Source: an uncultured Acidimicrobiia bacterium (GTDB lineage: Bacteria > Gemmatimonadota > Gemmatimonadetes > Gemmatimonadales > GWC2-71-9). From it: a stretch of 32,702 bases of DNA. Position numbers and translations under genes: made by a program. The first letter of the stretch is position 1. Each line of letters begins with the position of its first letter. The stretch lies in the NCBI GenBank assembly GCA_964196605.1, contig CAXMUQ010000247.1, forward strand, positions 1 to 32,702, written 5' to 3'. Below the pieces are notes generated by a model. It saw only the letters and a program-made list of their open reading frames with translations, ran no database searches and was not told the origin of the DNA. Positions 13,862 through 17,938 of this stretch are shown here, one piece after another.

Positions 13862-14329
13862 ATGCCACAGCCGATCTATGTTTGCGAGGCCACCATCCGC
13901 CGCTGGGAGGGCCCGAACCGGACGGTACGTCTCCCGGGGGCCTCCGAGGACATTTCCTTTGGGGTTCATGGGGCCATCGCCCAACACTACGGGCTCGACT
14001 CGATGGATGGACATCGACCGAACGCGACGACGATCGACTACGTCATTGCGGCGGCGGGTGGCTGACTCACCGGCACTTTTGCTGGCGCGCTGGAAGCGCG
14101 CGGGATTTCTCTGGGGCCGGAAGACATATACGGGGACGTGCGCGGTGAGGTCGAGTTGGATGACGGGGTATTGGTGATCAAGCGGATTCACGTTGCCTAC
14201 CGACTCAGGGTGGCGGAAGAACACCGCGTGGTTGCCGAGCGGGTGTTAGGCGTTCACGCCGACAAGTGTCCGGTCGCGAGGAGTATTGCAGGGGCGATCG
14301 GGATTACGACGGGGATCGAGTACCTGTAG
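13862..14329 (+). CDS. OsmC/Ohr-family peroxidase-like protein with an in-frame TGA (14063..14065) at the catalytic-Cys position; candidate selenoprotein (155 codons including the TGA)
   Basis: ORF-track pieces 13862..14065 and 14138..14329 share one frame, and I translated the gap by hand. The result is ...NATTIDYVIAAAGG[TGA]LTGTFAGALEARGISLGPEDIYGDVRGEVELDDGVLVIKRIHVAYRL...HADKCPVARSI.... This mirrors E. coli OsmC NPEELIGAAHAAC(59)FSMAL... and ...KAGC(125)PVSQ. It would be a pseudogene if the TGA is not recoded. Confidence 0.7.
14085..14101 (+). promoter_or_regulatory. SECIS-like hairpin downstream of the OsmC-family TGA
   Basis: GCGCGC (14085..14090), loop UGGAA (14091..14095), GCGCGC (14096..14101). 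The stem starts 19 nt after the UGA. A possible outer helix pairs CCGGC (14070..14074) with GCCGG (14116..14120). Folded by eye only. Confidence 0.4.
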
Positions 14330-14362: not shown

Positions 14363-16045
<1,683 letters not shown>

Positions 16046-16102
16046 GGGCGGGGAAGATACCACCGCCTGTGGTATGCAACCAACCCAAAACCGAGGCACG
16101 CA

Positions 16103-16672
16103 ATGCGAAGCTGGCTTGTCGTTCTGTTAGGCGTTGTGGCAGTGCTAGTCCCCCGGGCGGATCTGCCGGCCCAGGAAAACACTCCGCTAGACATAGAGGC
16201 GGAGGCTCCCACCTTTGCGCTTCCGGGGGCAACGGCTAAAGGAATCCTGCCGCATGACGTCAGCTTGGCCGACTTCAAAGGCAAGACGGTGGTTCTGGCC
16301 TTCTTCTACAAGGCCCGGACCAAGGGCTGAACTATCCAAATGCGCGCGTACCGTGATCAGTACGCGGAAATATTTGGAGAGCGGAATGACGTGGTGCTGC
16401 TGGCCATCAGCCGAGATAGCCCTGAAGCGTTGTCGTCGTGGGCCCAGGATGAGGGATTCGAGTTTCGCATGTTGAGTGACGCGGACGGCGCTGTGGGGAA
16501 GGCGTATGGGGCTGTGACCTCCGATGACAGGCTCGACAACCGGAATCTTTTCATTGTCGATGGGGAAGGGCTTGTCGCCCACCGGATGGTTCCCTTCCGA
16601 GAGGTAGATCCTACGGCCTACACCGACCTGGCTGATGCAATCCTGCAAGTGGCTGGTGCGCCAGCTGACTAG
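16103..16672 (+). CDS. Secreted AhpC/TSA (BCP-like) peroxiredoxin with an in-frame TGA (16328..16330) at the peroxidatic-Cys position; candidate selenoprotein
   Basis: ORF-track pieces 16031..16330 and 16340..16672 are in the same frame. Read-through gives ...FKGKTVVLAFFYKARTKG[TGA]TIQMRAYRDQYAEIFGERNDVVLLAISRDSPEALSSWAQDEGFEFRMLSDADGAVGKAYGA.... This aligns by eye with E. coli BCP RVLVYFYPKAMTPGC(45)TVQACGLRD...VLGISTD...FTLLSD...FGV, so T-x-x-[TGA]-T-x-Q corresponds to T-x-x-C-T-x-Q. The start is the ATG at 16103, with signal-like MRSWLVVLLGVVAVLV. Confidence 0.75.
16345..16366 (+). promoter_or_regulatory. SECIS-like hairpin downstream of the peroxiredoxin TGA
   Basis: CGCGUAC (16345..16351) pairs with GUACGCG (16360..16366), giving 7 bp around the 8-nt loop CGUGAUCA. 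The stem starts 14 nt after the UGA. Folded by eye only. Confidence 0.4.
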
Positions 16673-16681
16673 CACTTCTGG

Positions 16682-17938
16682 TCAGGTATCGAGGATCGCC
16701 TCGATCTCCTCCAATCGTCCGTCGATCTCAACGACCCGGGAATCCCGGGCCGTATTCGCAGCCAGGGGCTCTTTTAGGAGGTGCCCCGTCAGGACCGCTA
16801 CGACGCTGTCGTCTTCGCCGATAATCGCGTCGTGTCGCAGGCGTTTCACGCCGGCAACTGCCGCGGCACTGGCCGCCTCACAGCCAACACCGGAGCGGTC
16901 CACTACCGCCTTGGCCTCCAGGATTTCCTGGTCGGTCACGGTGGTCACCAGGCCGTTGGTTGCGCGGATAGCCCGCACGGCCCGGTCGAACGACGCCGGG
17001 TTGCCGATCCGAATGGCGGTGGCGACCGTGTCGGCGACGACTGGCTCGAGTTGTGAAAAACCCGCTGCATAGCTGTGGGCGAACGGCGCGGCACCTTCTG
17101 CCTGTACCGCCGCCAAACGAGGGAGACGGGAGATGAGCCCTGCGCGGAGCGCAGTGCTCAGGGCCCGCCCGAACGCAGAGGTATTGCCCAGATTGCCGGC
17201 TGGGAACACGATCCAATCCGGGGGCTCCCACCGCAGTTGGTGCAGCAGTTCGAGTATGATGGTCTGCTGACCGGCAATACGATACGGGTTGACCGAATTG
17301 AGCAAATAGAGTCCGAAGCGGTCCGCCGCCTGTTCCACCAGTTCGAGGCAGCGGTCGAAGTCTCCGCGAACGGCCACTGTTTGCGCCCCGTATGCTATCG
17401 ACTGGGCACGTTTCTCCGGTGTTACCCTGCCGGTAGGCACCAGTACCAGAGCCTGCAACCCGGCACGGGCGGCGTAGGCGGCAAGGGACGCAGCTGTGTT
17501 CCCGGTTGATGCACAAGCCACGTGCCGGGCACCTAGAAGGACGGCTTGGGTAATACCGACCGTCATGCCCCGGTCCTTGAATGATCCTGTCGGGTTCTGC
17601 CCCTCGTGTTTTAAGGTGAGCCGGTCCGTTTCCGTCCACCGTGCGATGGTGTCCGAAAAGATCAGGGGTGTATTCCCCTCCGGATAGCTGGTGGGTGCAT
17701 CGGTTGGCCGCGGGAGGATCAACTCTCGGTAGCGCCAGACACCGGAAATGTCGACAACGTCCCGTCCGGTGAGGCGAGTCTCGAACCGAGATCGCAGATC
17801 CGCACCAGTCCAAGGGGGAATAGGAACTTCGAGATCGAGGAGTCCACCGCAGCTGCACCGCTGATTGGTGGCTGATGCTCCATAGACCCGGCCGCATGCC
17901 GGGCAGACCAGGCCCATCACCGAAGTTGTAGGGGCCAC
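16682..17938 (-). CDS. thrC: Threonine synthase (with N-terminal Cys-rich zinc-ribbon-like segment)
   Basis: EGNTPL, GSFKDRGM (PLP Lys), ASTGNTAASLAAYAA and the overall length. The N-terminus CPACG...CSCGG is present. The GTG start overlaps the thrB stop by 1 nt (TAGTG). Confidence 0.93.
   Translation of the reverse strand: MAPTTSVMGLVCPACGRVYGASATNQRCSCGGLLDLEVPIPPWTGADLRSRFETRLTGRDVVDISGVWRYRELILPRPTDAPTSYPEGNTPLIFSDTIARWTETDRLTLKHEGQNPTGSFKDRGMTVGITQAVLLGARHVACASTGNTAASLAAYAARAGLQALVLVPTGRVTPEKRAQSIAYGAQTVAVRGDFDRCLELVEQAADRFGLYLLNSVNPYRIAGQQTIILELLHQLRWEPPDWIVFPAGNLGNTSAFGRALSTALRAGLISRLPRLAAVQAEGAAPFAHSYAAGFSQLEPVVADTVATAIRIGNPASFDRAVRAIRATNGLVTTVTDQEILEAKAVVDRSGVGCEAASAAAVAGVKRLRHDAIIGEDDSVVAVLTGHLLKEPLAANTARDSRVVEIDGRLEEIEAILDT

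Follow-up and report, generated by a model that had tools for sequence, protein, structure and literature searches.

An in-frame TGA at the peroxidatic position predicts an exported, single-selenocysteine peroxiredoxin in Gemmatimonadota

We analysed a 32,702-nucleotide stretch of DNA from an uncultured bacterium of the Gemmatimonadota (the whole of contig CAXMUQ010000247.1 of assembly GCA_964196605.1, positions 1 to 32,702; hereafter the window). We found that positions 16103..16672 on the forward strand very probably form a single functional gene, which would code for an exported peroxiredoxin (Prx) with one catalytic selenocysteine (Sec), i.e. a 1-Sec enzyme of a Gemmatimonadota bacterium. 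The complete selenoprotein coding sequence, of the AhpC/TSA peroxiredoxin type, comprises 189 codons followed by a TAG stop (16670..16672), with the predicted Sec at codon 76. A putative Shine-Dalgarno element, GAGG, was read from the sequence at 16093..16096 (forward strand), 6 nt 5' of the ATG at 16103. When the frame from this ATG to the TAG ending at 16672 was translated, the sole internal stop was the TGA at 16328..16330 (forward strand). We assign it as the predicted codon for U76, the peroxidatic residue, as it aligns with a Cys column and recurs in 15 distinct DNAs (see below). A sequence-only reading of the window had joined the open reading frames 16031..16330 and 16340..16672 across this codon; the two were indeed found in one frame, with the TGA and the codons ACT ATC CAA as the gap between them.

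The public record for the contig lists the product solely as a 110-aa fragment, and gene callers start this downstream piece at the ATG 9 nt after the TGA. Together with over a hundred relatives in the databases, the gene is thus recorded as a 75-aa 'hypothetical protein' and a 110-aa 'peroxiredoxin'. Reading the TGA as Sec restores the complete enzyme, including its catalytic residue, and would mark the Gemmatimonadota (Gemmatimonadales) as Sec users.

The TGA-bridged product gave one uninterrupted match to the Pfam AhpC-TSA profile (PF00578) that covers residues 32-160 and runs through the TGA (E=1.4e-28; 99.8 bits, cut-off 26); the profile search also returned Redoxin. It had been proposed from the sequence that the TGA lies exactly at the peroxidatic Cys; the profile alignment, which spans the TGA, placed its column on that of the peroxidatic Cys. 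In a phmmer search against solved structures the same column stood opposite the Cys of FPLAFTGIC in Mycobacterium tuberculosis AhpE, the best match, which was followed by archaeal and bacterial Bcp proteins. Cys occupies the column in 87 full-length homologues. Both the Pfam match and the AhpE alignment carry on past the TGA, and the proposal that the downstream half continues the Prx domain was thereby borne out.

The read-through context, VVLAFFYKARTKG[TGA]TIQMRAYRD, had been matched to the active-site signature PxxxTxxC. Only part of this match held: the TxxU signature is present, while the Pro is not, its place being taken by Tyr69. The Thr73 codon (16319..16321, forward strand) belongs to T73-K-G-U76, and this Thr is found in all homologues with TGA at the column (Sec forms) and is nearly invariant in those with Cys (Cys forms). 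The Tyr69 codon, TAC, is at 16307..16309 (forward strand), a position that is aromatic in Sec forms. The catalytic Arg of peroxiredoxins is Arg147 (codon 16541..16543, forward strand; motif NRNLF), and its column is invariant.

We used a proxy to look at the fold. An AlphaFold2 model of the homologue P0026, which has Tyr together with Cys and is 48% identical to the window protein, had a predicted local distance difference test (pLDDT) score of 88. Its top PDB matches were all peroxiredoxins, with AhpE superposing at a template modelling (TM) score of 0.9 and a root-mean-square deviation of 2.2 Å, and with Bcp4 and Bcp1 also near the top. At the level of named subfamilies, NCBIfam equivalog cut-offs were missed for Bcp (NF006960, 67.7 versus 140 bits), PrxU (NF040737, 56.3 versus 270) and Prx-SUH (24 versus 298); the best NCBIfam match was PRK09437, thioredoxin-dependent thiol peroxidase, with a score below the equivalog cut-off. 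The window protein therefore has the PF00578 profile, the thioredoxin-like Prx fold (by proxy), the TxxC/U signature and the catalytic Arg, and lacks the Pro of the universal motif. Because this canonical Pro is absent, we place it as a variant within the peroxiredoxin family and not as a canonical member.

The read-through product was searched against 5.8 billion proteins, with a bimodal outcome. The closest 31 clusters (73-99% identity) were all C-terminal fragments of 107-113 aa starting with MRAYRDQY, called from the ATG after the TGA. There were also 88 full-length matches (~170-270 aa, 48-63% identity) of the form ...FFP[RK]ART.GCTIQM..., with Cys at the TGA column. A query with the N-terminal 75 residues gave 671 matches, and the best 120 of these (clusters at 90% identity) were all fragments of 62-82 aa ending in ...FF[Y/F][KR][AV]RT[KS]G. 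Several of the N-terminal fragments carried the label 'hypothetical protein [Gemmatimonadales bacterium]'.

At the DNA level, 15 distinct sequences, drawn from independent assemblies in ENA, JGI, Logan and NCBI and 52-99% identical in protein, carried the TGA in frame and in this column. Their sources were mostly Gemmatimonadota, the named relatives being Gemmatimonadota metagenome-assembled genomes (MAGs). Syntenic TGA-containing orthologues were found at the loci L001 and L004. Two of the 15 sequences, on contigs as long as 82 kb and 38 kb, had the gene order of the window, with an ABC-F gene upstream on the opposite strand and thrC and thrB downstream. The mix of Cys and TGA forms that the sequence-only reading had suggested looking for was thus present, with 15 TGA DNAs and 87 full-length Cys homologues. 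As the patterns used to collect related loci included TKGCTIQM (with TGC/TGT), TGA forms were under-sampled by them; the shortfall was made up with fragment proteins and exact look-ups.

Pairwise comparison of the Sec forms gave ratios of nonsynonymous to synonymous divergence (pN/pS) of 0.32 upstream of the TGA and 0.43 downstream, with no frameshifts, and on this basis we conclude that both halves are translated in one frame. These data bear on the simplest objection, namely that the locus is a pseudogene or an ordinary Cys peroxiredoxin in which a sequencing or assembly error turned TGC or TGT into TGA. From TGC to TGA is a single-base change, and the splitting of the locus into two fragments by gene callers would fit as well. 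However, the same TGA was recovered in the 15 DNAs from independent samples and assemblers across the whole identity range given above, and the best 120 N-terminal fragment clusters of the 671 matches all end at the same residue. Purifying selection acts on both halves, again with no frameshifts, and a 21-nt stretch downstream is free of synonymous change in the TGA forms only. Sequencing error and pseudogene are effectively refuted by these observations, and we give them next to no probability.

We then consider the RNA downstream of the UGA, where a 7-bp hairpin had been noted from the sequence. Folding confirmed it, with an 8-nt loop, CGUGAUCA, and a start 14 nt past the UGA. The core stem-loop, a predicted bacterial selenocysteine insertion sequence (bSECIS), occupies 16345..16366 on the forward strand and is made up of the 5' arm CGCGUAC (16345..16351), the loop (16352..16359) and the 3' arm GUACGCG (16360..16366); its energy was -10.7 kcal/mol. 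In the minimum free energy (MFE) fold the core is enclosed by a lower stem, UCCAAAUG / UAUUUGGA, to give an extended hairpin at 16332..16381 (forward strand). At -19.5 kcal/mol (z=-3.4), this fold was not equalled in stability by any of 200 shuffled sequences. The lower stem was found in most sequences of the window clade and was absent from other Sec clades. The 7-bp stem and the 8-nt loop were nucleotide-identical in 14/14 aligned Sec forms (RNAalifold consensus).

Since an element without variation is also without covariation, the hairpin was tested at synonymous sites instead. Codons +6 to +12 (GCG TAC CGT GAT CAG TAC GCG, encoding AYRDQYA) were represented by one codon each in 15/15 Sec forms, and they include CGT and GAT, unusual codons for a genome of 62% G+C. 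Synonymous divergence among the Sec forms was 0.000 in this 21-nt element versus 0.52-0.68 in the flanking codons. For the same codons in 7 Cys-form genes, which encode largely the same residues, it was 0.68. Fully conserved residues with degenerate codons used a single codon in 7/7 cases inside the element versus 3/19 outside (Fisher p=1.8e-4). The rare CAA codon at +3 was found in 10/15 Sec forms, and CAG in 7/7 Cys forms.

The published bSECIS model (bSECISearch; PMC13188914, Fig. 2) describes an apical loop of 3-9 nt on an upper stem of 4-16 bp. It further calls for a G at loop position 1 or 2 with G or U after it, a distance of 16-37 nt from the UGA to the loop, and an MFE of -7.5 kcal/mol or lower (PMC13188914). 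The window element lies within this model on every count, with a loop of 8 nt that begins C-G-U, a stem of 7 bp, 21 nt between the UGA and the apical loop, and a core energy of -10.7 kcal/mol. The folding check proposed earlier therefore came out in favour of a SECIS: the hairpin fits the published model, and the synonymous freezing is confined to TGA forms. We saw no sequence resemblance to the Escherichia coli fdhF element. Compared with bSECIS elements generally the window element is unusually invariant, its 21 nt being identical across lineages that are only ~52% identical in protein. An Rfam search of the whole window at gathering thresholds returned no family, hence no curated SECIS or tRNA-Sec match. 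Lying inside the conserved protein segment AYRDQYA, the predicted SECIS illustrates dual coding cleanly and can serve as a search pattern for further members.

The codons just before the UGA also showed a bias. The Gly codon (16325..16327 in the window) was GGC in 15/15 Sec forms, while GGG, GGC, GGT or GGA were used in Cys forms, and the -2 codon was nearly always AAG. A structure search covering both sides of the UGA found only a weak GGCC/GGCU mini-helix upstream. The GGC/AAG bias may reflect a codon-context preference of Sec insertion, or this small predicted helix.

We also asked how UGA is used elsewhere in the window. TGA is the terminator of 14/26 window genes, so that any recoding must be site-specific. 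A scan for TGA codons with coding-like flanks found only two within recognisable window genes, both at redox-active Cys positions, far beyond what chance would give; the remaining read-through candidates were rejected as shadows of genes on the opposite strand or as ordinary gene ends. The second of the two is in an OsmC-like gene at 13862..14329 (forward strand; Pfam PF02566, E=4e-11), with its TGA at 14063..14065, 2.3 kb upstream of the Prx TGA. This is probably the gene that the sequence-only reading had ranked as its first candidate selenoprotein. Its context, DYVIAAAGG[TGA]LTGTF, puts the TGA at the catalytic Cys, and the second Cys is kept (HADKCPV). Downstream, at a distance of 26 nt from the UGA, begins a G+C-rich hairpin of 7 bp with the loop GGA; both TGA and hairpin were also present in the syntenic locus L001 (5985..6470). 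OsmC-like proteins are a known selenoprotein family (PMC1088965). That one contig carries two independent genes with TGA at the catalytic Cys is an argument for Sec decoding by the organism.

Two further explanations have to be weighed against Sec insertion here. In the first, the UGA would be recoded to another amino acid, either Cys, through a SelB-like factor and a selC-like tRNA(Cys), or Trp or Gly, through a reassigned code. SECIS-dependent Cys insertion systems occur in some bacteria, and the inserted amino acid is not distinguishable by sequence alone. General reassignment is excluded by the 14/26 window genes that end in TGA, and in-frame TGA is limited to the two redox-active Cys positions. 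As for Cys insertion, a TGC codon suffices without any hairpin, as in many Cys forms. In-frame TGA at Cys sites, combined with Cys homologues and a bSECIS, is moreover the standard signature of Sec (PMC13188914). We consider recoding to a residue other than Sec very unlikely.

In the second, the UGA would be a real stop and the downstream part would be made from the ATG at 16340, giving a two-piece or dead Prx-like protein, with the hairpin serving termination-reinitiation or regulation. An ATG does lie 9 nt past the TGA and is used by gene callers, and a role of the hairpin in coupling is conceivable in principle. However, Cys forms keep the Met at +4 just as strictly (TIQM), which makes this Met a structural residue and not an evolved start. 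The residue lost through the split would be the catalytic one itself, and still Thr73 and Arg147 are conserved; the C-terminal piece would also be made without a signal peptide. Both the loop content of the hairpin and its spacing agree with the bSECIS model, and the OsmC-like neighbour has the same layout of TGA at a catalytic Cys with a different hairpin. On these grounds a true stop appears extremely unlikely.

Several points weigh against a Sec peroxiredoxin. RNAalifold detected zero covariation in the hairpin among the 14 Sec forms, as the element never varies, and support for the hairpin consists of synonymous-site freezing and not of compensatory changes. No selA, selB, selC, selD or tRNA-Sec gene was found in the 32.7-kb window or the fetched Gemmatimonadota loci, which at ~100 kb are uninformative on this point; ARAGORN likewise reported zero tRNAs in the window and nine Gemmatimonadota loci. 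In the literature searched we found no publication on Sec use, selenoproteins or Sec machinery in Gemmatimonadota. We infer a selenium-containing residue at position 76 from the standard signature of such genes. Finally, the Prx motif lacks its canonical Pro, so that the peroxidase chemistry may depart from the standard.

We next turn to the location and likely mechanism of the predicted Sec peroxiredoxin. The N-terminal sequence starts basic, continues with a hydrophobic core of 12 residues and leads to LPA followed by Q; we predict a Sec-type (secretory) signal peptide at residues 1-23 (16103..16171, forward strand), MRSWLVVLLGVVAVLVPRADLPA, with a putative cleavage site before Q. The N-terminal extension of ~28 residues is without counterpart in cytoplasmic Prx structures. 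Among homologues the leader is variable in sequence, always signal-peptide-like, and ends in a nearly invariant A-Q. The earlier suggestion of a signal-like N-terminus and an extracytoplasmic location is thus strengthened by the hydrophobic leader and the nearly invariant AQ across homologues. It had also been remarked that the protein has no other Cys, and the translated product does contain zero Cys, in keeping with a 1-Sec design. Signal peptide and lack of a second Cys together imply an extracytoplasmic 1-Sec enzyme.

In the mechanism that we propose, the UGA at 16328..16330 would not be read as a stop in translation. The elongation factor SelB, carrying Sec-tRNA(Sec), would bind the stem-loop at 16345..16366, which lies 14 nt downstream and is invariant (loop CGUGAUCA), and Sec would be inserted at position 76. 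The signal peptide would direct the protein across the inner membrane. The U76 selenolate, activated by Thr73 and Arg147, would reduce peroxides and be converted to a selenenic acid. Because the protein is without a resolving Cys, the selenenic acid would need to be recycled by an external thiol partner, a 1-Cys type mechanism as in AhpE. In this family the Sec state is accompanied by an aromatic residue (Tyr69) at the canonical active-site Pro position.

With a 1-Sec peroxidase that is exported, the question becomes which partner would reduce it beyond the cytoplasm. In two unrelated contexts, L170/L171 (3262..3606, reverse strand) and L177 (2073..2579, reverse strand), a thioredoxin-fold protein of 164-168 aa adjoins a Cys-form member. 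This neighbour matched Pfam AhpC-TSA/Redoxin/Thioredoxin_8, is TlpA-like, and is a candidate extracytoplasmic reductant of the 1-Cys/1-Sec enzyme. Beside the window's Prx copy we found no such TlpA-like thioredoxin-fold neighbour.

Peroxiredoxins containing Sec are a known and abundant class; the sequence-only reading had stated that the class is known, and the literature confirms this (PMC1088965, PMC1794560, PMC13188914). One with the TxxU motif, PrxU of Eubacterium acidaminophilum, was characterised experimentally by Sohling et al. 2001, as cited in PMC13188914. In the Sargasso Sea data Prx ranked second in abundance among selenoprotein families, with 43 genes (COG1225; PMC1088965). Five Cys-to-Sec events and repeated interconversion of Sec and Cys have been inferred for the Prx family (PMC1794560), and a 2026 review describes the motif as the 'highly conserved PxxxTxxU'. 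Like the known TxxU family, the window protein has the AhpC/TSA fold, the predicted Sec at the peroxidatic Cys, a bSECIS directly downstream and abundant Cys homologues. Unlike it, the window protein has YxxxTxxU, a signal peptide, no second Cys and a Gemmatimonadota lineage. The kind is therefore already known, and what is novel is the YxxxTxxU motif, the predicted export and the Gemmatimonadota host. The general picture of bacterial selenoproteomes is unaltered by this gene.

Among Cys enzymes, the best sequence match with a solved structure (E=2e-12) is the 1-Cys peroxiredoxin AhpE (Rv2238c; PDB 1xvw, 1xxu, 4x0x), which shares the single catalytic residue, the absence of a resolving Cys and a mature domain of ~155 residues. 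AhpE differs in being cytoplasmic, in using Cys and in keeping the Pro (FPLAFTGIC), and its identity to the window protein is ~30%. The BCP/PrxQ proteins (E. coli Bcp; Sulfolobus Bcp1 and Bcp4) resemble the window protein in the C-T-x-Q context after the catalytic residue. In contrast to them, the window protein has no resolving Cys at +5, is predicted to be exported, and has Sec and Tyr in place of Cys and Pro.

Our searches also turned up ~45 Prx loci of other types with TGA at the peroxidatic column (L012-L070, L092, L097, L099, L106, L110, L113, L118). These came from soil and sediment metagenomes and MAGs, with Methylomirabilota/Rokubacteria, Acidobacteriota and Verrucomicrobiota as sources. 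Their types are WFYPKADTPG-U-TAEGCGFRD, which is PrxQ-like and has its resolving Cys at +5, AWFPKAFTGG-U-TAEC and AFFPAAFTGG-U-TKEF, and all of them keep the canonical Pro.

In the exported family the Pro position and the Sec/Cys state went together. The position was Tyr or Phe in 15/15 Sec-form DNAs. Of the best 120 N-terminal fragment clusters, 116 had Tyr and 4 Phe, in a search that was biased towards Tyr forms since its query contained FFYKARTKG. Pro was present in 86/87 full-length Cys forms, the lone exception being P0026, with Tyr and Cys. As other Sec-Prx clades keep the Pro, the pairing is specific to the exported Prx family. So strict a pairing of Sec-Tyr versus Cys-Pro, at a Prx position that is supposedly universal, gives a testable clue to how selenium is accommodated in the active site.

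A neighbour-joining tree was used to ask how often the state had changed. With this crude tree method, monophyly of the Sec forms was rejected (0/200 bootstrapped trees). At least three Sec lineages were found among the Cys forms: the window clade was recovered in 200/200 replicates, while L009/L087 clustered with Cys forms in ~90% of replicates and L007 in ~93%. Given that the 21-nt element is identical in all Sec lineages and that all have the aromatic residue, Sec would, on the simplest reading of these sequences and this crude tree, be the ancestral state, repeatedly converted to Cys plus Pro.

A stronger version, which we hold only tentatively and think rather doubtful, is that the choice of Sec or Cys is mechanistically coupled to a remodelled site (Tyr/Phe with Sec, Pro with Cys), and that Sec, together with its frozen SECIS, is ancestral and gave way to Cys several times, a direction opposite to the one that earlier comparative work inferred for Prx. 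Were it true, the family would provide a natural series on the protein changes that accompany a swap of sulfur and selenium, and the Gemmatimonadota would be a substantial and unrecognised reservoir of aerobic-soil selenoproteins.

Three possible transitional forms were noted among the homologues. P0026 (L177, 1501..2076) has Tyr at -7 yet Cys at the catalytic column, and its hairpin is destroyed (DTYRDRYP). P0010 (L170, from 1741 onwards) combines Pro with Cys, and its hairpin is intact but for one change in the loop (CGC for CGT). In P0042, a record derived from reads, the Sec column is Leu in the context FFFKARTRG.

Some minor features of the locus were also recorded. TAG ends both TGA-containing genes of the window (16670..16672 and 14327..14329), a sample too small for interpretation. 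Only 9 nt separate the Prx stop (16670..16672) from that of threonine synthase, whose gene converges on it (16682..17938, reverse strand), and this leaves no space for an intrinsic terminator. The Prx-thrC-thrB adjacency was kept in L001, L004 and L166, and it was also found beside the Cys forms L172 and L179.

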